DNA from: Candidatus Saccharimonadia bacterium
GTDB lineage: Bacteria > Patescibacteriota > Saccharimonadia > UBA4664 > SCTI01
Assembly (NCBI GenBank): GCA_046597065.1
Contig: JBKJLI010000002.1
Span: forward strand, 52,071 to 116,070
DNA length: 64,000 nt
Direction: 5' to 3'
Shown here piece after piece: positions 9,687 to 61,456 of the stretch; the stretch's first letter is position 1, and the number at the start of each line of letters is the position of its first letter. The translations under genes and the position numbers were made by a program. The notes beneath the pieces were generated by a model. It did not search any database. It saw only the letters and a program-made list of their open reading frames with translations, and was not told where the DNA came from.

Positions 9687-11873
9687 GTGATGAGTATGTT
9701 GTTAAAAGATTTAAATGATCCGCAACGCCAAGCGGTGCTTCAAACCGAGGGGCCGGTGTTAATGTTGGCAGGAGCCGGTAGTGGTAAAACCAAGGCGCTA
9801 ACGCATCGGATTGCCCACTTGGTGGCCGATAAAGGTGTTTCGCCGGGACAAATACTGGCGGTAACCTTTACCAATAAAGCCGCTGGCGAGATGCGTGCGC
9901 GGGTGCTAACTCTACTAGGCAAACGGGTTGATAACCGTCATTTTTTGCCTTATATTGGCACCTTTCATTCAATATGCGTACGGATGTTGAGGCAAGATGG
10001 CGACCGGATTGGATTGAGTAAAAGTTTCAGTATTTTTGATGCTCAGGATTCACTATCGGCCACCAAGCAAGCCATGCGCCAAATTGGAATAGATGAAAAG
10101 CAGTTTTCGCCAAACTTAATATCTAACTTGATATCATCGGCCAAGAATGAACTGCTGGGCCCAGAAAGCTACGCAAAGCATGCCCATGGAGCCGCCCAAG
10201 AAGTGACAGCCAAGGTTTACCCACTGTATGAGCGTTTACTGACAGAAGCCGGCGCACTGGATTTTGATGATCTAATAATGAAAACGGTAAAAATGTTGAG
10301 CCAACCCGAACTGCTTCAAAAGTGGCAGCACCAGTTTGCTTACGTAATGATAGATGAGTATCAAGACACTAATCATGCCCAGTATCGGCTGGTAAAGCAG
10401 TTAGCCTTAAGTCATCGCAACATCTGTGTGGTTGGCGACGACTGGCAGGCTATTTATTCTTGGCGCGGTGCCAACTTTCAGAACATTCTGGATTTTGAAA
10501 AGGATTATCCCGATGCGGTGATTATCAAATTAGAGCAGAACTATCGATCGACCCAAAACATATTGGCGGCAGCCGATGCAGTGATCACTAAGAATCTGGT
10601 GCGCTCTAAAAAAGAGCTGTGGACCGATCAAGCCGACGGCGCCAAGGTGCAAGTAGTGACGGTTTATGATCAAAACCATGAGGCCGATACCATCTGTGAG
10701 TTAATTGATCGGCATGTAAGGGCAGGCGAATATAAGCTATGCGATTATGCAGTTTTATACCGAGTGGGCGCTCAGTCGCGGTCGCTAGAAGAGTCGCTAT
10801 TGCGACATAATCTGCCCTATAAGATTATTGGTGGTACGCGCTTTTATGAGCGCAAAGAGGTTAAAGACGCCCTGGCCTATCTGCGCTTTATCCATAACCC
10901 TGGTGATATCGTTAGTTTTAACCGCATTATTAATCTGCCGCCACGGGGCTTGGGCGACAAAAGCTTAGAGCGATTGGGGCAGTATCAACGCGGCCACAAT
11001 CTTAGCCTGTTAGATGCACTGCTGACTTCTAGCCAAGTCGAGAGCTTAACTCCTCGAGCACGGGAGGCTTTAATGCGTTTTTATGATCTGATTATGGGAT
11101 TACGAGGTGAAATCGAAAATCTTTCGATTGGCCAGTTGCTAGATCGGGCGCTTAAGCAAAGTGGATATATTGACTACTTAAACGACGGAAGTATTCCGGC
11201 GGCCGAGCGGTTAGAAAACATTGCCGAGTTGCTGCGAGTCTCTGAAACCTACAGCGAGCTAGGGCTAGAGGGCTTTTTAGAAGAGATTGCTCTGGTGTCA
11301 GACATCGACAACTACTCTACAGATGCTGATGCCGTTACATTGATGACGCTACATGCTGCCAAGGGGTTAGAGTTTGAGGTGGTGTTTATGCCCGGAATGG
11401 AGGAAGGGATCTTTCCTCATGGTCGTAGCGCATTTGATCAGTCCCAGCTCGAGGAAGAGCGGCGGTTGTGTTATGTGGGTATGACAAGGGCAAAACAGCG
11501 TTTGGTAATGCTTCATACCCAATCGCGCCTGCTTTATGGAGGGGTTCAGCATAATCCACCTTCGCGATTTTTGCTCGATATACCGGCGCAGCTACGTGAG
11601 GGCGATACGCTTACGGCTGGATCTACGGTTACAGCTCCTAGCCCAGAGCGGTTTGTGGGGGGTAACCCGTTTAATGATCTAGAGTTTGAAGGTTTAAGTG
11701 ACGGCTTGGCTCCAGAGAAAGCTAATCTAAAGCCAGGCGATCAAGTTAGCCATGCCAAGTTTGGAGAAGGCCTGGTGGTGTCGGTGGTTGGCGATGAACT
11801 TACGGCGACATTTGTGGGGGTTGGTACTAAAAAACTTAGTCTGTCGTTTGCACCGATTCAAAAGTTAAAATAA
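9687..11873 (+). CDS. uvrD: ATP-dependent DNA helicase UvrD/PcrA
   Basis: 728 aa; Walker A AGAGSGKT; helicase motifs (DEYQDTN, GDDWQAIY, VTLMTLHAAKGLEF). Promoter-like TTGTGACA...TGGTACAAT 8 nt before the start. Confidence 0.9.
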   Translation: MMSMLLKDLNDPQRQAVLQTEGPVLMLAGAGSGKTKALTHRIAHLVADKGVSPGQILAVTFTNKAAGEMRARVLTLLGKRVDNRHFLPYIGTFHSICVRMLRQDGDRIGLSKSFSIFDAQDSLSATKQAMRQIGIDEKQFSPNLISNLISSAKNELLGPESYAKHAHGAAQEVTAKVYPLYERLLTEAGALDFDDLIMKTVKMLSQPELLQKWQHQFAYVMIDEYQDTNHAQYRLVKQLALSHRNICVVGDDWQAIYSWRGANFQNILDFEKDYPDAVIIKLEQNYRSTQNILAAADAVITKNLVRSKKELWTDQADGAKVQVVTVYDQNHEADTICELIDRHVRAGEYKLCDYAVLYRVGAQSRSLEESLLRHNLPYKIIGGTRFYERKEVKDALAYLRFIHNPGDIVSFNRIINLPPRGLGDKSLERLGQYQRGHNLSLLDALLTSSQVESLTPRAREALMRFYDLIMGLRGEIENLSIGQLLDRALKQSGYIDYLNDGSIPAAERLENIAELLRVSETYSELGLEGFLEEIALVSDIDNYSTDADAVTLMTLHAAKGLEFEVVFMPGMEEGIFPHGRSAFDQSQLEEERRLCYVGMTRAKQRLVMLHTQSRLLYGGVQHNPPSRFLLDIPAQLREGDTLTAGSTVTAPSPERFVGGNPFNDLEFEGLSDGLAPEKANLKPGDQVSHAKFGEGLVVSVVGDELTATFVGVGTKKLSLSFAPIQKLK

Positions 11874-21429: not shown

Positions 21430-21831
21430 TTAGCCCAGAAATACCAGGCCATACTCCGCCAACTTGGCCTCGACCTCGTTGATTGAGTGGTTGCCCATGT
21501 TGGGAATCATCTCCATGTCGTGACGTGAAAGTTCGATCAGCTCTTGGACGGTTGAGATGTGAGCACGCGAGAGGCAGTTGTAAGCCCGCACGCCCAATTC
21601 AAGCTCTTCGAGCCGAGTGTCGCCAAGAGGCTTATCAAAACTCCGGTGCGCTTCGGGTAGTTGGACTCCTTGGTTGCTGAATACACGTGGCATCACGTCG
21701 ATCGTGAGTGTGTAGCCGAGTTGAGTTCCTTGTAGGGCAGCCTTGATTCTTTCAATCTGCTCATAAAGATCATTCGGTTCACCGACAAGAGTTCCGTCTA
21801 TACTACCCTTTACTTCGAGTACAATCTGCAT
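21430..21831 (-). CDS. Standalone RNA polymerase alpha-subunit C-terminal-domain (alphaCTD)-like protein with a ~55 aa N-terminal extension
   Basis: LEELELGVRAYNCLSRAHISTVQELIELSRHDMEMIPNMGNHSINEV matches the alphaCTD helix-hairpin-helix. SD GGAAGGA upstream. GC above the genome average. Confidence 0.65.
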   Translation of the reverse strand: MQIVLEVKGSIDGTLVGEPNDLYEQIERIKAALQGTQLGYTLTIDVMPRVFSNQGVQLPEAHRSFDKPLGDTRLEELELGVRAYNCLSRAHISTVQELIELSRHDMEMIPNMGNHSINEVEAKLAEYGLVFLG

Positions 21832-22185: not shown

Positions 22186-22275
22186 CTGGCGGTGGAAGTG
22201 GGATTCGAACCCACGAGAGACCTAGATCTCTGATCACTTCGCGGGTGATTCCGATAAACCACTCCGGCATTCCAC
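22186..22275 (-). tRNA. Type-II tRNA (long variable arm, G73; Ser-like) with an anomalous anticodon loop CCGCGAA: C33 and apparent anticodon GCG. Either a variant or a pseudo-tRNA
   Basis: Reverse complement GGTGGAATGCCGGAGTGGTTTATCGGAATCACCCGCGAAGTGATCAGAGATCTAGGTCTCTCGTGGGTTCGAATCCCACTTCCACCGCCA. Acceptor, D, T and 18-nt variable arms all fold. The loop is non-canonical. Confidence 0.65.
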
Positions 22276-22351
22276 CGGATGAGCCAGCCAGACCCACAAC
22301 GAGTATTTCAAATCAAGATTAAATCCCGGTTAAACTGATACAATAATTCTG

Positions 22352-44912: not shown

Positions 44913-45515
44913 ATGTTTACCGTTCCTGATCTAACATTCGACTTTGACGCTCTTGAACCGCATATCGATGCAAAAACCATGGAGATTCATCATGATAAGC
45001 ATCATGCGGCCTATGTGCAAAAACTTAATGATGCATTAGAGGGTTTTGATGACCTGCTTAAACTCGATGTTGCTGAGCTGTTAGTAAATAATCTCGAAAA
45101 GGTTCCTGAAGCCAGGCGGACTGCCGTTAAAAATAATGGCGGCGGCCACCTAAATCACACCATGTTTTGGACGCTGCTTAGCCCCAATGGAGGTGGTGAG
45201 CCAGATGGCGAACTTGCCGATGCCATCAATAAAGACTTTGGTAGCCTAGATGAGTTTAAAGCCAAGTTTAAAGAGGCAGCCGTGGGTCGATTTGGTAGTG
45301 GTTGGGCATGGCTATGTAAAGACTCCGATGGCCTTCACGTTTGCAGCACCGCCAATCAAGACAATCCACTATTGGATGGTCATACTCCCATCTTGGGATT
45401 AGACGTTTGGGAGCACGCCTACTACCTTAAATACGCCAATAAGCGCCCCGATTATGTAGATGCATTTTGGAATGTGGTCAACTGGGATGAAGTTGCCAAG
45501 CGTTTCGCGGCCTAG
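44913..45515 (+). CDS. sodA: Fe/Mn superoxide dismutase
   Basis: [14 protein letters not shown] motifs. Confidence 0.9.
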
Positions 45516-45570
45516 CCAACTCCTTGAGGCGAGGGCGATAATTTGTTAACATAGCCAGGTTCAAATCTGA

Positions 45571-45645
45571 TGGGGCGTGGCCAAGTGGTAAGGCGCTTGA
45601 TTCTGGCTCAAGAGATCGTAGGTTCGAATCCTACCGCCCCAGCCA
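45571..45645 (+). tRNA. tRNA-Gln (anticodon CUG), U1-A72 start
   Basis: TGGGGCGTGGCCAAGTGGTAAGGCGCTTGATTCTGGCTCAAG...GGTTCGAATCCTACCGCCCCAGCCA. Confidence 0.85.
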
Positions 45646-45660
45646 TTGCACTTATGCTTA
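45643..45660 (+). repeat. Copy 3 of the CCATTGCACTTATGCTTA motif (overlaps the tRNA-Gln CCA end)
   Basis: Identical 16-17-mer to copies at 33088 and 33708. Confidence 0.8.
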
Positions 45661-45700
45661 AATAATGGCATCATCATAATGATATAAAGGGTAGATAGGT

Positions 45701-45991
45701 ATGCATCTGTACACAGGGACAATTGGACGTCTGGCTTTCCTCGCGGGCTATGTCGTATTTTTTGTATGTGCGGCTTTTGTGGCTTACTTAGTTAGAACCG
45801 TTGATCCATCATTTACGCCCTTAGCATTTATATTTGGACTCATTGCTGTTCCACTAGTCTTTTCTCTTCTTATTAGGCGCCTAAATGATATAAATATTTC
45901 GGGCTGGCTGGCGCTTTTAATTTTGATACCAGGCATTAATTTAATTTTCATTCTTGGGCTAATATTTTGGCCCGGCCAATCTTCAAATTAG
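45701..45991 (+). CDS. DUF805-family small inner-membrane protein
   Basis: RRLNDINISGWLALLILIPG motif; two TM segments. Confidence 0.65.
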   Translation: MHLYTGTIGRLAFLAGYVVFFVCAAFVAYLVRTVDPSFTPLAFIFGLIAVPLVFSLLIRRLNDINISGWLALLILIPGINLIFILGLIFWPGQSSN

Positions 45992-46154
45992 ATATATCAA
46001 TTTTATGATCAAGAATTAAATCAACGGCTAGTCTTTCCCTGATCGTAATCTCGACATCAAAATTTGCTAAGTCATAGCTTAAATTATTTGTTGAAATATT
46101 TACTAATAACTCGCGACTGCTCATTAATATAAATAATTGATATTATATGGGTAA

Positions 46155-46643
46155 GTGAAACAACCTGCGCAGCCTAAATATGTTTACGAATTGGCCGAAC
46201 CGGCTGGTAAGAATTTTGATTCAAAATTTAAGCCGGAATTAACGCCCAAGAAAATGCTTAAACTGGGTGTTTTTGGGGGCTCATATTTAAATGATAGTCA
46301 GGCTGAGTTTCCAGCAGACTGGTTTAGGGATGCTAGGCTCAGCGACCACGGCCCAGATGCAAAATACAACTATTATGAGGTAATTGCCAGCCAACCTTTG
46401 GCTATTTGGCAGCAAAAGGGCTGGATTCACCAAGCAGATCCCATCGGTTGGTTTCAGTGGTACTGTCGCTATTATTTGGGTCGAAGATTAGGGCAAGAAG
46501 ATCAGCGACAAATAAAGCGCTGGTATGCTATGCGTCGACATATTAGCCAGGTAAAAAAGAACTGTTTTAGCTGCGACCAGAATTGCCGCCCCAAGCAGCG
46601 CCAGGCATTACTTCAATGGGCTTATGACAGTAGGAAAATATAA
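46155..46643 (+). CDS. Hypothetical protein (162 aa, GTG start), Trp/Tyr/Cys-containing, AT-rich context upstream of the rhodopsin
   Basis: No motif recognised (GVFGGSYLND, GWFQWYCRYYLGRR, CFSCDQNC). Confidence 0.45.
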   Translation: MKQPAQPKYVYELAEPAGKNFDSKFKPELTPKKMLKLGVFGGSYLNDSQAEFPADWFRDARLSDHGPDAKYNYYEVIASQPLAIWQQKGWIHQADPIGWFQWYCRYYLGRRLGQEDQRQIKRWYAMRRHISQVKKNCFSCDQNCRPKQRQALLQWAYDSRKI

Positions 46644-46763
46644 TATAAGATTCTATTAATAAACAACGCCCAGCTCTGTTTCATGGGTTTTCTTAATCTA
46701 TTAATTTTACTTTAAAGATACCGCCCTAAACGGGAGTAACTGCAAGTCTGATACAATATTTTT

Positions 46764-47531
46764 ATGAATAAAATATCTGACGCCCAAATCAAGCCGCTTA
46801 GAATTTGGAATCTGATAGCCGGTTCGTTACATTTAGCATCTTTAATTGCAGTAGTAGCTTTATCTAACAGCTTTTCTCTCCCGGTAACCGCGACATATAT
46901 GACCGGCCCTCCCGGTTCGACGTTTTCTAATCCAATACTTCTGTTTAACAATAATGTTAGCTTTACAATTGCCTTGTTCTTGGGGCTGTCGGCTTTTTTC
47001 CACTTCTTAGTTGCGTCTAAGCAATTTTTTCCAAGATATGCCGTCAGCTTAAAGCAAAATCGTAATATGTTCCGCTGGGTGGAATACTCATTAAGTTCTT
47101 CGGTAATGATTTTATTAATCTCACAATTAAATGGCATTAGTGACTATGCCGCACTTTTGGCAATCTTTGGCGTAAATGTATCGATGATATTATTCGGCTG
47201 GCTGCAAGAAAAATATGCAAATCCGGGCGATGGCCAATGGCTTCCGTTTATATTCGGATGTATTGCCGGTATTGTTCCATGGTTAATAATCGTTGTTCAA
47301 ATGATTTCTCCGGGTGGCCCGGCTGATGCACAGTATCCAAACTTTGTTTACGCCATTGTATTTTCACTGTTCGTTCTGTTTAACTGCTTTGCCTTGGTTC
47401 AGTACAAGCAGTATCAGGCAAGGGGAAAATGGGCCAACTATTTACGGGGCGAAAAAACCTACATTGTTTTAAGCTTAGTTGCTAAATCATTGCTTGCTTG
47501 GCAAATATTTGCCGCCACTCTAGCAAGTTAA
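46764..47531 (+). CDS. Heliorhodopsin (7-TM retinal protein; Lys in TM7, Glu in TM3)
   Basis: Seven hydrophobic segments. Blocks resemble my recollection of archaeal HeR: LSNSFSLP, LSAFFHF, FRWVEYSLSSSVMI, ILFGWL, IAGIVPWLII, VQYKQY..GKWANYL.GEKTYIVLSLVAKSLLAWQIF. Leaderless: TGATACAAT 7 nt before the ATG. Confidence 0.8.
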   Translation: MNKISDAQIKPLRIWNLIAGSLHLASLIAVVALSNSFSLPVTATYMTGPPGSTFSNPILLFNNNVSFTIALFLGLSAFFHFLVASKQFFPRYAVSLKQNRNMFRWVEYSLSSSVMILLISQLNGISDYAALLAIFGVNVSMILFGWLQEKYANPGDGQWLPFIFGCIAGIVPWLIIVVQMISPGGPADAQYPNFVYAIVFSLFVLFNCFALVQYKQYQARGKWANYLRGEKTYIVLSLVAKSLLAWQIFAATLAS

Positions 47532-47583
47532 AAAACTTCTATAATATATAATTGCTATTGGATTGTATTTGAAAGGCGCCCCC

Positions 47584-47605
47584 GTAGGGGCGCCTCTTGG
47601 TTGGT
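47584..47605. terminator. GC hairpin AGGCGCCCC-cgta-GGGGCGCCT between the convergent heliorhodopsin and the minus-strand high-GC gene
   Basis: Perfect 9-bp stem; weak U-tracts. Confidence 0.45.
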
Positions 47606-47617
47606 TCCCGCTAGGCA

Positions 47618-48199
47618 CTAATTGATGGTGTATGAACCATCAAAGTGCCCAATCAAGCTAACTCCCATGTTGTGCGCATCCACGCGGACGCATCCGAATG
47701 GTGTTGGAAAACAGCGCTTGAAGTCAACCTGGACCGAGGATCGGTGGCCGCCTTGCGGATATCCCTTGTAGTAGTAATAACCGTTGCTTTGGCTACCCAT
47801 CCCTTCGTCGTTCCATTGAAGAAGTGCACCGATTGTGGTGACTCCGTACTGGATCTTTGGAGCGGGTGTTTGGGTCACCCTATGTGACTTGCGGCTGTAG
47901 CACCACGTCTTGGTGAGCCTCACCCAGAACATGGTACCGGCCAGGGCGTGAAACTTGCGATACGCCCAGTGGGTGGCACATGCCTCGCGCTTATTGCGAG
48001 AGGCTGCCTGTGCTTGCCCGACGGTAGTGCTGATGTACAACAGCTGTCCTTTCTTGATCCAGGCAGCAGACGGGTGCTTGGGCGTCGCACCTTGTGAAGT
48101 GGAATCACTTCCGCTCCCAAGCACGAACCCGATCACGTAGACGACCGTCATGATCACCAAGATCCAGATCAGGATCTTCTTCCAGTTCCAGTCTTTCAT
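47618..48199 (-). CDS. Hypothetical secreted or membrane-anchored protein (193 aa), high GC
   Basis: Strong SD AGGAGGAGG; N-terminal TM/signal; no family recognised. Confidence 0.6.
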   Translation of the reverse strand: MKDWNWKKILIWILVIMTVVYVIGFVLGSGSDSTSQGATPKHPSAAWIKKGQLLYISTTVGQAQAASRNKREACATHWAYRKFHALAGTMFWVRLTKTWCYSRKSHRVTQTPAPKIQYGVTTIGALLQWNDEGMGSQSNGYYYYKGYPQGGHRSSVQVDFKRCFPTPFGCVRVDAHNMGVSLIGHFDGSYTIN

Positions 48200-48448
48200 A
48201 AGGTACCTCCTCCTTGAGGAATGGATAAGCAGTATTGTACAATATATGCAATATAAGTCAATAATTAGATATTGTTTGCGGCAAAAGTTTTATAACGAAC
48301 CATGATCTCGCCGAGCAATCGCTCCTGTCTTGCACGGCCAAAATTCTACTAGCCAGCTATGGAAATGCCCCACGCGCGGCGGAGCGATATCGTATCTAAA
48401 AAGGGTAAAAAAGAGCCCACTGCGGGGCTCTTTATCCTGCAGTGGGCT

Positions 48449-49081
48449 TTATGCGAGCTGGAGTTCTTGCTCGCGCTCTCGATCGTACGGCTCGATGGCT
48501 TCGGGGCCTTCTGGCCCATCATCTTCGGGCTCTGGGTCGTCCTGATCATCTAGGCCTGGACCGCCCCCGCCGCCGCCTCTCAAGTAGAAGGGCACGGTGA
48601 AAAAGAATATCGCGCCAGTAATGAAGATGGCAGCGATTACAGGGTAGAAAGCGTTTCCCCACCATGTGTTATATGGACTCTGGTAGACCTCGTCGTCCTG
48701 CTTGGTAGCCGCAGCCTTTTCGTAAAAGAGATCATCGCCTGTGGCTTGGTTTGAGACCCATGCATGTAGACCCATGCCGGCAGAAACTTCTGGCTCCACT
48801 GGCTGGTCGTAATAGTCCCAGACCTTCCCGGTTCGTGTGGTGACCTCGATGGTGGCCAACCGGTAATGCTCATCTTTAGTCAGCGAGATATTGATCTTTT
48901 TTAGCGCAGATACGTTTAGCACCCGCGCTGTGATCTGCTTGCCGTACCGGTGGTGCTGAACTTGGTTACTATGCGTAACCCAAACGACGAGCAGCACCAA
49001 AGAAACAACGAAGGTTGCTCCTAGTAGCTTCCAGCGAACTGGCGACATGCGCATTCGGAACACCTCCAATTTGATTTTCAA
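48449..49081 (-). CDS. Hypothetical membrane protein (two TM, acidic Gly/Pro/Asp/Glu-rich C-terminus), high GC
   Basis: TM segments LLGATFVVSLVLLVVWV and FYPVIAAIFITGAIFFFTV; a terminator-like hairpin sits at about 48405-48430. Confidence 0.55.
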   Translation of the reverse strand: MKIKLEVFRMRMSPVRWKLLGATFVVSLVLLVVWVTHSNQVQHHRYGKQITARVLNVSALKKINISLTKDEHYRLATIEVTTRTGKVWDYYDQPVEPEVSAGMGLHAWVSNQATGDDLFYEKAAATKQDDEVYQSPYNTWWGNAFYPVIAAIFITGAIFFFTVPFYLRGGGGGGPGLDDQDDPEPEDDGPEGPEAIEPYDREREQELQLA

Positions 49082-49176
49082 GGTTGGCTAAATGATTACA
49101 CAGGATGCAGTCATCTGCAAATCAACATTATAGGGCTAGATTTTTAGATCAGGCTGTGTCATTATAGTGTTAATTA

Positions 49177-51033
49177 ATGTCTGCGCCCCGGGCGCATTTT
49201 TATTTGATGCAAAAATCTGAGTACATCCGAAATATTGCAATAATTGCGCACGTTGACCATGGTAAAACTACCTTGGTAGATGGTCTGTTAAAGCAGTCCC
49301 AAACTTTTCGTAGCAACCAGGCCGAGATGGCACAGTCTCTAATTATGGATAGTGGTGATCAAGAGCGTGAACGAGGTATTACTATTACCGCCAAGGTAAC
49401 GGCGGTTCAGCATGGTGATCATCGAATCAATATTATTGACACACCCGGCCATGCTGACTTTAGTGGCGAGGTAGAGCGAACATTAGGTATGGCGGATGGC
49501 TGCTTACTTATCGTTGATGCTCAAGAGGGGCCAATGCCCCAAACTAAATTTGTGCTGCAACAGGCGCTGGCGCGTGAGCTTAAGCCAATTGTAATCATCA
49601 ACAAAATTGATAAGCAGGCGGCACGGGTGCCAGAGGTCGAAGAGGAGCTGGCCGACCTGTTTTTAGAGCTAGCCGTTCATGAAGATCAGCTGCATTATCC
49701 GGTATATTACGCGATTGCCCGCGAGGGTAAGTCATGGGAAAAGAATCCTGCCGACCCTACCGAAGCGGCCGATTTAGAGGCAATATTTAAAGCTATTATC
49801 GATCATGTACCCTCGCCCAAGGTTGAACAGGACATGCCGCTGCAAATGCTGGTAACAGCCCTGGCCTTTGATAGCTATAAGGGCAAGTATGCCATTGGGC
49901 GCATAAACCGTGGTTCGGTGAAAGCCGGCGATCAAGTGGCGGTTTGTAAGAAAGACGGGAAAGTGGCAAAGCAAAAGATCGAAGCCGTGTTTATGAGCCA
50001 TGGTTTAGATAAGTTTACGGTCGATGGCGGAACGGCCGGCGACATTGTGCAGCTTACCGGCTTGGGCGATATTCAGATTGGCGAAACGGTAGCAGATGCA
50101 ACCAGCCCCGAGGCACTACCAATCCTTGAGGTTGAAGCCCCAACACTAAAGATTTATGTTGGCCCAAACACCAGCCCATTTAAGGGCCAAGAGGGCGACT
50201 TTGTGACCGGCCAACAGATAGGCGCAAGGCTTTATAAGGAGCTAGAAACCAACATTGGCCTGCGAGTTGAAGATGGCGGCTTAGGCTACTTAGTCAGCGG
50301 CCGCGGGGAACTGCACTTAAGTGTACTCGTCGAAACAATGCGTCGCGAGGGTTTTGAGCTTGAAGTTGGGCGCCCACAGGTAGTTACACGTGAAAAGGAT
50401 GGCAAGACCGAGGAACCACTTGAAGAACTTATTATCGAGGTTCCGGCCGAGCATGTTGGAGCGGTGCAAATGGAGCTGGGCCAAAGACGCGCCGAGCTAA
50501 AGGAGCAGTTTGCTAGTAGCAAGGGCGTCACTAAGCTGGTTTATACTCTTCCCACAAGAGTTCTTTTGGGGTTACGCAATATCCTGCTAACGGCCACCAA
50601 GGGTACAGTTATTATGAACTCGATAATTTTGGGGTACCAGCCAATGGGGCCGGCGCTTAGGCAGCTGCGAAATGGTGTACTAATTGCGTTTGAATCTGGT
50701 ACCACCACGCCCTACTCACTCGAAAACGCCCAACAGCGCGGCACCACTTTTGTGGCACCTGCTGTAAAGGTTTATGCTGGTCAGATTGTAGGCTTGAACT
50801 CACGCGGCGACGATATGGAAGTTAACGTCTGCAAAGAAAAGCACCTAACCAATATTCGATCGAGCAGTAGCGATGGTGTTGTACAGCTAACGCCACACAT
50901 AATTTTTAGCCTAGAAGAGTGCCTAGACTTTATCGAGAACGACGAGCTGGTAGAGGTTACACCCAAGAGTCTGCGCCTACGCAAGCGCGAGCTAGAGGCA
51001 AACGCGCGCAAAAAGGCGGCTAAGCGCGGGTAA
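49177..51033 (+). CDS. typA: Translational GTPase TypA/BipA
   Basis: AHVDHGKTTLVD, DTPGHADF, NKIDK; EF-G-like domains. Confidence 0.9.
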   Translation: MSAPRAHFYLMQKSEYIRNIAIIAHVDHGKTTLVDGLLKQSQTFRSNQAEMAQSLIMDSGDQERERGITITAKVTAVQHGDHRINIIDTPGHADFSGEVERTLGMADGCLLIVDAQEGPMPQTKFVLQQALARELKPIVIINKIDKQAARVPEVEEELADLFLELAVHEDQLHYPVYYAIAREGKSWEKNPADPTEAADLEAIFKAIIDHVPSPKVEQDMPLQMLVTALAFDSYKGKYAIGRINRGSVKAGDQVAVCKKDGKVAKQKIEAVFMSHGLDKFTVDGGTAGDIVQLTGLGDIQIGETVADATSPEALPILEVEAPTLKIYVGPNTSPFKGQEGDFVTGQQIGARLYKELETNIGLRVEDGGLGYLVSGRGELHLSVLVETMRREGFELEVGRPQVVTREKDGKTEEPLEELIIEVPAEHVGAVQMELGQRRAELKEQFASSKGVTKLVYTLPTRVLLGLRNILLTATKGTVIMNSIILGYQPMGPALRQLRNGVLIAFESGTTTPYSLENAQQRGTTFVAPAVKVYAGQIVGLNSRGDDMEVNVCKEKHLTNIRSSSSDGVVQLTPHIIFSLEECLDFIENDELVEVTPKSLRLRKRELEANARKKAAKRG

Positions 51034-58000: not shown

Positions 58001-58080
58001 AGATTAATTATAGCTGAGCTAACTACAACAGTTGGCATCGACGCCGGATGGTTTATACTAAAAACCGTAAGAAAGCGCTT

Positions 58081-58467
58081 ATGATAAAAGTAATGATAGT
58101 CGAAGACGACAGCGAGATTAGAAATCTGTATGGTTTCTCATTGAAGCAAAATGGCTTCGATGTAATTGAAGCCGCCGATGGAGCGATTGCTGCCAAGCAA
58201 CTTGATGCTAATAAACCGGACGTGATTTTGCTAGATATGCTCATGCCCGGCATATCCGGGTTAGATTTTTTGCGTAACAACAATGTTCATCATCGTTATC
58301 CCGCTACCAAAATCATCGCCTTTAGCAATATTGAGACCCCAAGGGTGGTCGAAGAGGCTAAGAGTTTGGGTATCACCAGCTACTTTTTAAAAGTTAATGT
58401 AACCCCACATCAAATGGTTGATATCATCAAGGGTATGATGGGCGGAAAGCCAGCGGCTAAAGTCTAA
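58081..58467 (+). CDS. Single-domain response-regulator receiver (CheY-like), no output domain
   Basis: VMIVEDD...DVILLDMLMPGISG...K motifs. The alternative upstream ATG at 58048 is less likely. Confidence 0.75.
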   Translation: MIKVMIVEDDSEIRNLYGFSLKQNGFDVIEAADGAIAAKQLDANKPDVILLDMLMPGISGLDFLRNNNVHHRYPATKIIAFSNIETPRVVEEAKSLGITSYFLKVNVTPHQMVDIIKGMMGGKPAAKV

Positions 58468-58468
58468 A

Positions 58469-59536
58469 TTGAAAACCCAGCTTGAGCTTAAGGCGGCAAT
58501 AGATGAGCGCTTAGAAAAGTTGTTTACCGATCGAGTAGTTGCCGCCAAACTGATTGATCCGGTTTATTCCGAGCTGATTACTGAAATGGGACGATTTATT
58601 GCCCGCGGCGGTAAGCGCCTGCGACCATATTTGACATACTTGGCATACTTTGGCTACGGTGGCAAAAACGAAGATGCGATTTTAGAGCTTGCGGCGAGCC
58701 AAGAGTTGTTCCATAACTTTCTACTGATTCATGACGACATTATAGATGGCGACAGTCGGCGCTATAGTGGCGACAACATTACCGGCCGCTATGTAAAGAT
58801 CCTGGGCAAGGGTGGTTTGTCGCAGGCTGATAGCCAGCATTATGCCGTGGCTGTGGCTTTACTGGCTGGTGACGTTAATGCTGCTTTGGCTTTTGAGGCT
58901 ATAGCCAACAGTAATTTTGATGATGGCCTAAAAGTGACTGCCACAGCTCGCATGGCCAGAATGATCTTCGAGATAGTAGGGGGTGAGCTGCTAGATGTTT
59001 TGTTGCCTATGGAACCATTTACTAAAATTACCGAGCCAAGGTTAAACCAAGTAATTAGTTACAAAACCACGTCATACAGCTTTGAAGCACCTTTGCAGCT
59101 AGGTGCATTGATGGCTAAAGCTGAAGACGCCGAACAAGACGCAATTAGCCAGTTTGCAATGCCCCTGGGAGCGGCCTTTCAGATCACCGATGACTTACTT
59201 GGCATGTTTGGTGAAGAGGCAATAACTGGCAAGTCGATCACAACCGACTTAAAAGAAGGTAAACGAACATTGCTAATCCACTTTGGGCTTGAATTGGCGA
59301 AAGGCATGGATTTAATTGTATTAAAGCAAAATTTGGGCAACAAAGCTTTGAGCGAATCCGATCACAACGCAGTTGTTGCAGTTCTTGAGCATTGTGGTGC
59401 ACGCGCTAAAACGGAGGCATTGGCCAACAACTATGCTCAAATTGCTAAAGATCGTTTGTCACTCCTAAGTGTTACTTCTGAAGTAAAAGCGAGTTTGGGT
59501 AAGCTGATTTTGGCCTGCGTTAATCGCCAAAAATAA
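58469..59536 (+). CDS. Polyprenyl (isoprenyl) diphosphate synthase, trans-type
   Basis: FARM LIHDDIIDGDSRR and second DDxxD-like ITDDLLG. Confidence 0.85.
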   Translation: MKTQLELKAAIDERLEKLFTDRVVAAKLIDPVYSELITEMGRFIARGGKRLRPYLTYLAYFGYGGKNEDAILELAASQELFHNFLLIHDDIIDGDSRRYSGDNITGRYVKILGKGGLSQADSQHYAVAVALLAGDVNAALAFEAIANSNFDDGLKVTATARMARMIFEIVGGELLDVLLPMEPFTKITEPRLNQVISYKTTSYSFEAPLQLGALMAKAEDAEQDAISQFAMPLGAAFQITDDLLGMFGEEAITGKSITTDLKEGKRTLLIHFGLELAKGMDLIVLKQNLGNKALSESDHNAVVAVLEHCGARAKTEALANNYAQIAKDRLSLLSVTSEVKASLGKLILACVNRQK

Positions 59537-59855: not shown

Positions 59856-60773
59856 TTGGCCGAGATCTACGACGTTGCGATTATTGGCGCCGGCCCAACC
59901 GGCTTGGCGGCGGCTGTCTATACCACCCGCGAGGACTTAAGGACCGTTGTTTTAGATAAGGGTATCGCTGGTGGTCTAATCGCAACTACAGAAATGGTTG
60001 ATAACTACCCTGGTTTTCCCGAAGGCATTGGCGGCTTAGAGTTAGCCGAGCGATTGGGTAAGCAGGCCGAGCGCTTCGGGGCCGAGGTAAAGACTTTTAT
60101 TGGCGTGAACGGGTTAAAGGCTGTTGGCGGATTAATCCAAGTGCAAACTGCCGGTGAGCCTATACAGGCACGTAGTGTATTAATTGCCACAGGATCAAGC
60201 TATAAACACTTAGAAATCCCAGGCGAAAAGGAGCTGGAGGGCCGTGGCGTGCACTTTTGCGCCACTTGTGATGGCCCGCTATATCGCGGCAAGCATTTAA
60301 TTGCAGTTGGTGGAGGCAACTCCGCCTTGCAAGAGAGTCTGTTTTTGGCCAAGTTTGCGAGCAAGCTTACGGTTTTGGTGCGTGGCCCCCAGTTTAAGGG
60401 TACCGAAGAGCTGGCTGAACGTTTACAGAAATTAGCCAATGTTGAGGTGCATTTTAACAGCGCCATAAAGGAGGTGGTTGCCCAAGATGGTAAGTTTGAC
60501 TCGGTCAAACTTAATAACGGTGGTAGCGTTAAGGCCGACGGTTTATTCGTATTCATTGGGTTGTTGCCAAATTCCGGTTGGCTACATGGCTCAACCACCC
60601 TCGATGACAGTGGGTTTGTTAAGGTAAATAATAAGTTCGAAACCAATCTAACGGGTGTGTTCGCGGCCGGTGATGTGGTTGAAGGTGCAGTTGGCCAGCT
60701 CGCTAGCGCGGTAGGCGAGGGCGTAGCGGCGGCATTATCAATTAGAGAGTATTTAAACAACCAAAGCAGTTAA
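59856..60773 (+). CDS. trxB: Thioredoxin-disulfide reductase
   Basis: GAGPTGLAAA FAD motif; redox CATCDG; GGGNSA NADPH motif. Confidence 0.9.
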   Translation: MAEIYDVAIIGAGPTGLAAAVYTTREDLRTVVLDKGIAGGLIATTEMVDNYPGFPEGIGGLELAERLGKQAERFGAEVKTFIGVNGLKAVGGLIQVQTAGEPIQARSVLIATGSSYKHLEIPGEKELEGRGVHFCATCDGPLYRGKHLIAVGGGNSALQESLFLAKFASKLTVLVRGPQFKGTEELAERLQKLANVEVHFNSAIKEVVAQDGKFDSVKLNNGGSVKADGLFVFIGLLPNSGWLHGSTTLDDSGFVKVNNKFETNLTGVFAAGDVVEGAVGQLASAVGEGVAAALSIREYLNNQSS

Positions 60774-60814: not shown

Positions 60815-60942
60815 TGTGATTCATCTAAAAAACAATTTACCAATTAAGCGTCAATTGTTTGCGTTCGTCCTACCCCCTAGGAAACGCTGAGGTCTCACGT
60901 TCGTTTATTCGCCGGTGGCCTCACAAGAGGCCGTTTTTATTT
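60815..60942 (+). ncRNA. Candidate small RNA (~125 nt) between the promoter and a rho-independent terminator (GGCCTC-acaa-GAGGCC + T-run), immediately upstream of a tRNA-like element
   Basis: No ORF. Internal inverted repeat AACAATT...AATTGTT; duplicated GCGTTCGT; terminator at about 60914-60942. Confidence 0.3.
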
Positions 60943-61024
60943 CGGGGTGTGGCTCAGCCCGGTAGAGCACTTCTGTTAATTTTTTTGGCAGAGGCGGTCG
61001 CAGGTTCGAATCCTGCCACCCCGA
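60943..61024 (+). tRNA. tRNA-like element: initiator-like acceptor/D-arm (CGGGGTG..GCTCAGCCCGGTAGAGC), intact T-arm, but a 13-15 nt anticodon loop (TTAATTTTTTTGG). Intron-containing or degenerate tRNA; no CCA encoded
   Basis: 7-bp acceptor CGGGGTG/CACCCCG; T-arm GCAGGTTCGAATCCTGC. The anticodon stem CTTCT/AGAGG encloses an over-long loop. Confidence 0.4.
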
Positions 61025-61063
61025 TAAGTACATCGCAGCTACAACCGTGTCACGGAGGTGACC

Positions 61064-61456
61064 ATGCCAGAGGCAGTCGTTGCAGACTCACAGCACCCAT
61101 TCCGGTCAGATGGCTGGGACAGCTTGCCGCCCAGGATGGCCTGCAAGTTCAACCCAAGCAACGAGGCTGGCCCAGAGTCCATCAAGGCATTCTTGTGCCT
61201 GCCGGGCGTTACCGTTTCATCGTTGAGTATGAGGCGTGGGGTGGATTTCCGATGGACGATTAGCCTCGAAGTTGAGACCGGTTTGATCCGATCCTTGGCT
61301 GATCAAGCCATGATCGATGGCATCGGATTGCTCAAGCTTCGCGGCGCATCGTTCACAGATCCGTTTACGATCGTCGATCATCGCATTCTGCGCAGATGGG
61401 GACAGTTTCCTCTGGGTGGCTTGCCCATGCTTCCACCAATACCGTGGCAGCATTAG
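61064..61456 (+). CDS. Hypothetical protein (~131 aa), high GC, directly downstream of the tRNA-like element
   Basis: Strong SD GGAGGTGAccATG; hairpin and T-rich stretch downstream. Confidence 0.5.
   Translation: MPEAVVADSQHPFRSDGWDSLPPRMACKFNPSNEAGPESIKAFLCLPGVTVSSLSMRRGVDFRWTISLEVETGLIRSLADQAMIDGIGLLKLRGASFTDPFTIVDHRILRRWGQFPLGGLPMLPPIPWQH

Follow-up and report, generated by a model that had tools for sequence, protein, structure and literature searches.

The window, by which we mean the whole 64-kb stretch of DNA analysed here, carries an ORF identified as a heliorhodopsin (HeR) gene. The ORF lies in a block bounded by a tRNA-Gln gene on one side and by typA on the other. Its upstream neighbours are, as the initial annotation of this DNA had noted, genes for a DUF805 protein and for a 162-aa protein; the latter gave no family match in Pfam, NCBIfam or the PDB. 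The features referred to in the text are as follows.

44913-45515: superoxide dismutase (SOD) gene, 1.25 kb upstream of HeR
45571-45645: tRNA-Gln gene
45701-45991: gene for the DUF805 protein (Pfam E 3e-12)
46749-46757, plus strand: extended -10 element TGaTACAAT (TGATACAAT), 6 nt upstream of the HeR ATG
46764-47531, plus strand: heliorhodopsin coding sequence, an ATG-started ORF of 255 aa plus stop
47082-47084, plus strand: GAA codon of Glu107, putative Schiff-base counterion in helix C, at the position of 48C12 E107
47484-47486, plus strand: AAA codon of Lys241, retinal Schiff-base lysine in helix G by alignment to 48C12
47574-47595: GC-rich hairpin with a stem of 9 bp and a loop of 4 nt, in the gap where HeR and the 193-aa gene converge
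47618-48199, minus strand: 193-aa gene, convergent with and downstream of HeR; GC 0.54, GC3 0.68 (highest of 59 genes)
48449-49081, minus strand: second convergent gene; GC 0.54, GC3 0.61 (top three of 59 genes)
58469-59536: polyprenyl synthetase gene
59856-60773: thioredoxin-reductase-like gene

Gene identity and transcription

The ORF had been proposed as a probable heliorhodopsin gene, and profile and structure-database searches bore this out. The Pfam Heliorhodopsin model (PF18761) was matched over positions 1-242 of 242 with an E value of 9.4e-92 and 307.2 bits (cutoff 26.7), and the HeR equivalog of NCBIfam (NF038020) scored 315.7 bits, well over its cutoff of 100. The family recovered was therefore heliorhodopsin, over the full model, rather than a non-rhodopsin 7-TM family, and the type-1 rhodopsin model PF01036 gave no match at E ≤ 0.01 in the Pfam scan of the ORF. 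In a sequence search of the PDB the best match was HeR 48C12 (6SU3/6UH3/9LJJ; E ~1e-103), to which residues 6-253 aligned without a gap on residues 6-253 with 63% identity, followed by the archaeal TaHeR (E 3e-54) and a eukaryotic HeR. All the sequence blocks that had been quoted as typical of heliorhodopsins were found in the 255-aa translation, namely LSNSFSLP, LSAFFHF, WVEYSLSSSVMI, GIVPW and GKWANYLRGEKTYIVLSLVAKSLLAWQIF. The same locus is present on a Logan contig, where an independent gene call gave a 255-aa product with the same neighbours. The protein collection search showed that an identical HeR sequence was already public (NCBI and Logan), and that the other clusters in the collection were at most 86% identical to it. 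Judged by these matches, the ORF at 46764-47531 is a genuine heliorhodopsin gene. An antisense ORF at 46712-47137 was rejected, since it has no support and overlaps the frame of HeR, which is strongly conserved.

The start codon is closely preceded by the extended -10 element. Six bases lie between the last T of the hexamer and the ATG, making the A of the ATG the seventh base downstream, which accords with the distance of 7 nt given earlier. No Shine-Dalgarno (SD) motif was present at -18 to -4 of HeR, and the promoter was not listed by a two-hexamer promoter scan because it has no -35 match. The same arrangement was observed at related loci. A TAnnnT hexamer was located 4-10 nt upstream of the start in 18 of 21 Saccharibacteria HeR loci, mostly with a gap of exactly 6, and the upstream TG was present, by eye, at most of the 21; an SD motif was found at none of them (0/21). 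The hexamer occupied the same position in 27 of 53 actinobacterial HeR loci, nearly all with a gap of 6. Within the window, the gap between TAnnnT and the start was exactly 6 nt in 11 of 59 genes, compared with 2.1% of all ATGs (binomial P 3.4e-8). Since the promoter geometry was conserved across HeR loci and enriched among the genes of the window, a leaderless mRNA is the best reading, with a transcript whose first base would be the A of the ATG or one beside it. The annotation of HeR as a leaderless gene with its own promoter was thereby strengthened. By the same counts, the leaderless layout is a habit of this genome and not a peculiarity of HeR. A literature search on leaderless genes in Saccharibacteria found nothing relevant. 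For specialists, the conservation of this leaderless promoter geometry across the 48C12-like clade, in two phyla, may be of interest.

Downstream of HeR, the region 47529-47615, which includes the hairpin, folded as RNA with an energy of -27.2 kcal/mol (z -2.2). The hairpin is followed on the plus strand by UCUUGGUUGGUU and was not flagged by a simple terminator scan. It probably acts as a bidirectional intrinsic terminator for HeR and the 193-aa gene, in which case HeR would be monocistronic. In this arrangement HeR would be transcribed alone, as a leaderless message from the extended -10 promoter that ends at the GC hairpin.

Functional residues, topology and predicted fold

As there is no gap in the alignment to 48C12, its residue numbers can be applied directly to the window protein. 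We compared 40 positions, chosen among those named as functionally or structurally important in 48C12 (PMC7049168), and 38 were identical. The exceptions were position 26, which is Gln in 48C12 and Ser here, and position 179, which is Tyr in 48C12 and Gln here. The lysine noted earlier in the middle of helix 7 is K241 and corresponds to the Schiff-base lysine of 48C12, while the glutamate noted in helix 3 is E107, at the counterion position. Glu107 was invariant in 75 of 75 homologues. The helix-7 motif is S237-L-V-A-K241, thus SxxxK, the form given for heliorhodopsins in PMC9166423, and not DxxxK, and both its K and its S were invariant in the 75 homologues; for the lysine, whose conservation had been named as a check, this amounts to 22/22 Saccharibacteria and 53/53 actinobacterial sequences. 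Around K241, the RSB-stabilising residues S237, E107, S111 and S76 are shared with 48C12, as are the residues of the Schiff-base cavity (H23, H80, N101, Y108, N16, E230, R104 and Y92). Identity to 48C12 extends to the hydrophobic barrier (L12, L96, L227), the E149 region, the retinal pocket (M141, I142, F206, F72, M115), P40, P172 and D127, the fenestration residues I170 and F203, and also Q216, Y226, W105 and Q213. The polar and charged residues among the checked positions matching 48C12 were invariant in the 22 Saccharibacteria and 53 actinobacterial homologues. Moreover, 90 of the 255 columns were at least 97% conserved in an alignment of 81 sequences. As far as the sequence alignment tells, the Schiff-base cavity and the retinal pocket are essentially unchanged relative to 48C12.

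The distribution of charges between the loops was highly uneven. Lys and Arg residues numbered 11 in the N-terminus and the B-C, D-E and F-G loops (3+4+1+3), compared with 0 in the A-B, C-D and E-F loops and the C-terminus. These loop charges predict a cytoplasmic N-terminus and a C-terminus outside, that is, the inverted topology, in line with the earlier expectation of an N-terminus inside. Inverted topology is a defining trait of the heliorhodopsin family. The AF2 model was built from a shallow alignment of 27 sequences and had low confidence (pLDDT 62.8), and the pocket was therefore judged from the 48C12 sequence alignment only. The model contained seven long helices and an A-B loop element, which, together with the gapless alignment to 48C12, agrees with the seven helices described before. 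A structural search with Foldseek placed the solved HeRs first for this low-confidence model, with 48C12 and TaHeR at TM scores of 0.71-0.75 and E values of 1e-13 to 1e-8; type-1 rhodopsin structures followed at E ≥ 8e-3 and 10-14% identity.

Comparison with known systems placed the window protein close to 48C12, which was recovered on a freshwater actinobacterial fosmid (structures 6SU3, 6SU4, 6UH3 and 9LJJ). The two proteins are equal in length and differ in host, which is actinobacterial for 48C12 and a CPR bacterium here. TaHeR (Thermoplasmatales, PDB 6IS6) belongs to the same family and has the same key residues, but is archaeal, only ~39% identical to the window HeR, shorter and gapped in the A-B loop region, and wider in its fenestration, with A200/F172 in place of F203/I170 (PMC7049168). 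Subfamily 2 HeRs, which are mostly viral, are characterised by Glu202, the loss of Asn138 and Pro172, and a retinal pocket altered by His at 162/166 (PMC7049168). In the 48C12 alignment none of these features was found in the window HeR, which has L202, N138, P172, F162 and C166. Type-1 rhodopsins have an Asp counterion, a DxxxK motif and an N-terminus outside, whereas the window protein has E107 and S237. Among them, the SacR rhodopsins (PMC9296517) resemble it in having a Saccharibacteria host, in being retinal proteins without blh and in the proposed origin of their retinal, which would come from actinobacterial hosts and be taken up fast from outside, but they are outward proton pumps with an Asp-type (DTS) motif and the opposite topology.

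Heliorhodopsins of Saccharimonadia have been counted previously, with 80 occurrences, SLVAK as the commonest motif of CPR heliorhodopsins, and assignment to HeR from the reversed orientation with the N-terminus inside (Chiriac 2022, PMC9166423). The window HeR has the phylum-level host, the SLVAK motif and the predicted N-inside orientation in common with these proteins, and it differs in being at most 86% identical to other clusters and in a neighbourhood that is not shared. Since HeRs in Saccharimonadia are already published (PMC9166423), the gene is a correct and fairly ordinary find. On its own it matters little, given the curated profiles, crystal structures and published Saccharimonadia census that exist.

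Relatives and genomic setting

The best matches of the TypA protein encoded in the window were 78-86% identical and named Candidatus Saccharimonadia or Saccharimonadales. The closest HeR loci were likewise found in Saccharimonadales MAGs (76-84% identity), including a complete chromosome of 840 kb, which sits well with the reduced genome assumed in the initial annotation. The next tier, at 62-73% identity, consisted of HeRs from freshwater Nanopelagicales/Planktophila Actinobacteria. A neighbour-joining tree was calculated from 81 sequences, a sample biased towards the query, with TaHeR as root and 100 bootstraps. The window HeR fell within the main Saccharibacteria clade. This clade was nested inside the actinobacterial HeRs in 95 of 100 bootstraps, its own support being 40/100, and the actinobacterial HeRs were monophyletic in 0 of 100. 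A second, small pair of Saccharibacteria sequences (L063, L067) branched apart from the main clade. The nested phylogeny points to a transfer between Actinobacteria and Saccharibacteria and suggests an old one from Actinobacteria into Saccharimonadales, the direction being tentative.

Eight positions cleanly separated the Saccharibacteria from the actinobacterial HeRs, and Q26S and Y179Q were among them. The two substitutions were present in 20-21 of 21 Saccharibacteria, and Q and Y were kept in 51 of 53 Actinobacteria. In 48C12, Q26 is part of the Q26/S242/W246 surface cluster, which rearranges between states and has been proposed as a signal relay, and Y179 is located in the dimer interface (PMC7049168). 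These clade-specific changes at Q26 and Y179, and the nesting of Saccharibacteria HeRs among actinobacterial ones, may likewise interest specialists. It is conceivable, though we lean against it, that the Saccharimonadales HeR came from freshwater Actinobacteria of the host phylum, that it uses retinal and perhaps a xanthophyll made by the host, and that Q26S and Y179Q mark a re-tuned oligomer or partner contact. If so, an epibiont would have borrowed both the gene and the chromophore with which it senses light, and a genome of ~900 genes with a solitary HeR would offer an unusually small search space for the output of heliorhodopsin.

The gene is located in an AT-rich stretch, as had been stated: GC was 0.31-0.43 across 45.85-47.6 kb, versus ~0.49 for the window. 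HeR itself has a GC of 0.41, 8 points below its surroundings, and a GC3 of 0.41. Across 25 other Saccharibacteria-clade HeR loci, mean HeR GC equalled the GC of the flanks. Otherwise the window holds few genes beyond those for glycolysis, aminoacyl-tRNA synthetases and translation. The two genomes closest by TypA carry wholly different accessory genes upstream of typA, and the downstream side is partly syntenic. To examine whether the HeR neighbours are conserved, 15 window proteins were compared by tblastn with 80 HeR loci, and the ORFs of 26 Saccharibacteria-clade loci, one of them the window, were clustered all against all. No conserved HeR neighbour was found in either set, with two exceptions: the 162-aa protein recurred at a single locus, L004, and in four loci HeR had a small YdeI/OmdA gene beside it. 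In the 25 other Saccharibacteria-clade loci the neighbours changed almost every time. A homologue search with the 162-aa protein returned a huge, highly conserved and unnamed family whose members are not confined to HeR loci. Because the content upstream of typA differs in relatives and the neighbours are not conserved, HeR can be classed as accessory and its region as variable. A search for att-like repeats and repeats of the tRNA-Gln 3' end across 45400-49300 yielded only short AT-rich repeats at chance level.

The genes immediately downstream of HeR had been described as convergent, high-GC and acquired. The first two attributes were confirmed, with GC and GC3 as listed above; as to the third, the composition of both genes would suggest a foreign origin. 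The 193-aa gene at 47618-48199 (minus strand) has a strong SD motif, unlike its leaderless neighbours.

Chromophore supply and possible functions

Pfam scans covered ~60 ORFs of at least 90 aa, within a 64-kb window of a genome of roughly 0.8-1 Mb. Among these ORFs no beta-carotene dioxygenase (blh), CrtI, CrtB or lycopene cyclase was found, in keeping with the earlier remark that the 64 kb hold no blh/crt genes, nor was any type-1 rhodopsin gene; the sole isoprenoid gene in the window is the polyprenyl synthetase. Rhodopsin-bearing Saccharibacteria without blh have been described and a supply of retinal from Nanopelagicales hosts proposed (Jaffe 2022, PMC9296517), and HeRs take up retinal fast through a small opening, TaHeR being described as doing so in organisms without a retinal pathway (PMC9296517). 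With no retinal pathway nearby and none in the published Saccharibacteria rhodopsin genomes, the chromophore is probably external. The putative dependence on external retinal implied in the initial annotation thus fits both the 64-kb window free of blh/crt and the published genomes (PMC9296517). The idea of a borrowed retinal is already published for the type-1 rhodopsins of Saccharibacteria (PMC9296517).

Taken as a whole, the locus is best explained by a functional 48C12-type (subfamily 1) HeR in Candidatus Saccharimonadia (TM7, CPR), a reading that we consider likely. The 63% identity to 48C12 leads us to infer that the protein would bind retinal, pass through a slow photocycle and transport no ion. 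By homology to 48C12, all-trans retinal would be bound at Lys241 and isomerised by light. The Schiff-base proton would then pass, without being released, into a water-filled cavity inside the protein, with E107, H23 and H80 as its lining, and no ion would be pumped owing to the hydrophobic interior of the extracellular half, to which the lack of pumping by 48C12 has been attributed (PMC7049168). Through contact with another protein, the long-lived activated state would then signal light or exert regulation. The chromophore would come from the surroundings or a host and enter by the lateral opening common to HeRs. A solitary conserved photoreceptor in a small genome, with 64 kb that hold neither pathway nor partner, would leave a narrow set of partners and chromophore sources, and the modest value of the gene lies in offering a clean minimal-genome test case for what heliorhodopsins do.

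Four other explanations were weighed, and all were rated below that of a 48C12-type light signal. The protein might be a two-antenna light harvester, with an exogenous xanthophyll at the outward-facing lateral site in addition to the retinal, working in energy or light capture and not in signalling. The six-position motif proposed for the carotenoid site (preprint 10.1101/2025.11.27.691015) is complete and clade-invariant here (F162, C166, G169, F206, N207, A210), the same preprint proposes such a role for most heliorhodopsins, and an epibiont on carotenoid-producing Actinobacteria would have access to the pigment (PMC9296517). However, the hypothesis is built for HeRs on docking and motif counts in that preprint, which in the sections consulted reports no carotenoid-bound HeR structure or energy-transfer measurement; the harvested light would have no evident use, given that 48C12 does not pump (PMC7049168); and a two-antenna role is compatible with a sensory one. 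We regard it as unlikely. Light-driven or light-gated proton transport, as in the viral V2HeR3, is an established activity of one viral HeR (PMC9448325), but the features of subfamily 2 (PMC7049168) are absent, L202, N138 and P172 are clade-invariant, and the protein is 63% identical to the non-pumping 48C12 (PMC7049168), so that this role appears very improbable. As to a decaying or functionless passenger of the variable region, transient in a cell that cannot make retinal, the region does differ between related genomes and holds no conserved neighbours, and the GC of HeR is 8 points below that of its surroundings. Yet the frame is intact and full-length, with 90 of 255 columns at least 97% conserved in the 81 sequences, no catalytic or pocket residue has been lost, related loci share the promoter geometry, and the homologues number thousands, among them a whole clade of Saccharimonadales that are 76-86% identical. 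Purifying selection leaves such a pattern, and the passenger explanation is hardly credible.

The remaining explanation bears on the partner of a 48C12-type light signal. HeR could regulate a specific enzyme or transporter by binding directly to it in the light, or trigger an oxidative-stress response. Partners have been shown experimentally for AbHeR, TfHeR and OcHeR, the examples being glutamine synthetase, photolyase and an ABC exporter (PMC9529153, PMC9769723, PMC11109279), and for the HeRs of monoderms and CPR bacteria a part in oxidative stress has been suggested (PMC8612252, PMC9166423). The SOD gene 1.25 kb upstream and the thioredoxin-reductase-like gene would suit the latter role, but SOD was near HeR in 0 of 25 other Saccharibacteria-clade loci. 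In one relative (L001) a DUF2177 gene, which belongs to one of ten published neighbour groups, lies directly downstream of HeR. Here, none of the ten HeR neighbour groups of Kim et al. 2024 (PMC11109279) adjoins the gene, which has its own putative promoter and terminator, and the neighbours vary in nearly every locus. A specific regulator is, moreover, a narrower form of the 48C12-type signal and not a true alternative to it, and we hold it to be quite improbable. The initial annotation had spoken of an unknown signalling partner, and the published partner types were indeed not nearby: no glutamine synthetase, photolyase, ABC transporter or histidine kinase was found by Pfam among the ~60 ORFs of the 64-kb window. 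With no conserved neighbour, no partner was inferred, and the partner is not identifiable from the HeR locus. The window HeR falls into the 'helR alone' class, which is the majority class (PMC11109279).

Promoter-like elements at gene starts

The spacing of TAnnnT elements relative to start codons was analyzed for the 59 genes of the window. At 11 of them such an element is separated from the start codon by a gap of exactly 6 nt (P 3.4e-8), frequently as TACAAT or TATAAT. A Shine-Dalgarno-like motif of any kind was found at only 17 of the 59 starts. Examples of the first kind are as follows.

Gene starts with TAnnnT at a 6-nt gap: 5450, 16011, 19468, 22352, 36430 and 53934; 57005 (minus strand)

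Judged from these 59 starts, the genome as a whole seems to use promoters of the leaderless type habitually. A literature search on leaderless promoters in Saccharibacteria gave nothing relevant.

Genes surrounding the heliorhodopsin gene

The heliorhodopsin (HeR) gene lies between the following genes.

46155-46643, plus strand: 162-aa protein, directly upstream of HeR
47618-48199, minus strand: membrane-anchored protein, convergent with HeR
48449-49081, minus strand: membrane-anchored protein, convergent with HeR

The 162-aa protein showed no match in Pfam, NCBIfam or PDB, and belongs to a very large, strongly conserved family with at least 8000 homologues, the best 120 of which share 61-100% identity with it. 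The named members come from Saccharibacteria and one other CPR group. In one other genome, at locus L004, a relative (10775-11260) also directly adjoins HeR, on the side opposite to the window arrangement. A 14-nt near-repeat, TATAATATA(A/T)(G/A)ATT, was found just past the stop codons of the 162-aa gene (46639-46652) and of HeR (47540-47553), so that HeR is bracketed by the two copies. The near-repeat is AT-rich and may be due to chance.

No family match was obtained for the products of the two convergent genes, whose GC3 values were 0.68 (47618-48199) and 0.61 (48449-49081). The former is preceded by a promoter match, TTGACT-16-TACAAT, and carries a strong ribosome-binding site, AAGGAGGAGG, in contrast to its leaderless neighbours. 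The product of the latter ends in a C-terminal tail that is Gly-rich and then highly acidic.

Heliorhodopsin loci in other genomes

In four Saccharibacteria loci, the gene directly downstream of HeR is a small member of the YdeI/OmdA family (Pfam PF13376, E 6e-15); three further loci have such a gene no more than 10 kb from HeR. The four adjacent copies are listed below.

L003: 10781-11038
L005: 1485-1805
L006: 3061-3375
L026: 1022-1282

At locus L001, HeR is followed by DUF2177 and DUF1295 genes; DUF2177 is a frequent HeR neighbour (PMC11109279).

In the alignment, residues 26, 69, 117, 122, 156, 158, 171 and 179 cleanly separated Saccharibacteria from actinobacterial HeRs. These eight positions include Q26S, in the surface cluster Q26/S242/W246, and Y179Q, in the dimer interface. 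Loci L011 and L013, labelled Burkholderiales and Acidimicrobiia, have HeRs that fell inside the Saccharibacteria clade of the neighbour-joining tree. They share three flanking gene families and the same HeR start, TGtTAAC-N6-ATG, and are probably mis-binned Saccharibacteria contigs.

Other genes and tRNAs of the window

Further features of the window are as follows.

21430-21831, minus strand: 133-aa ORF (PF03118, E 5e-20)
22187-22276, minus strand: tRNA-Arg(GCG), 90 nt (ARAGORN)
58048-58467, plus strand: stand-alone response-regulator receiver domain gene
58469-59536, plus strand: polyprenyl synthetase gene
60943-61024, plus strand: tRNA, 82 nt (Rfam, 52 bits)

The receiver gene abuts the polyprenyl synthetase gene, which is the sole isoprenoid gene within the window. 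A histidine kinase was not detected anywhere in the 64 kb. The match of the 133-aa ORF is limited to the RNA polymerase alpha C-terminal domain. The tRNA at 60943-61024, which is absent from the ARAGORN calls, overlaps an ORF (60859-61263) that matches no known family and is likely to be spurious. As read from the sequence, tRNA-Arg(GCG) has a long variable arm, an encoded CCA and C rather than U at position 33. It scored below the gathering score of the Rfam tRNA model, and is perhaps unusual or degenerate.
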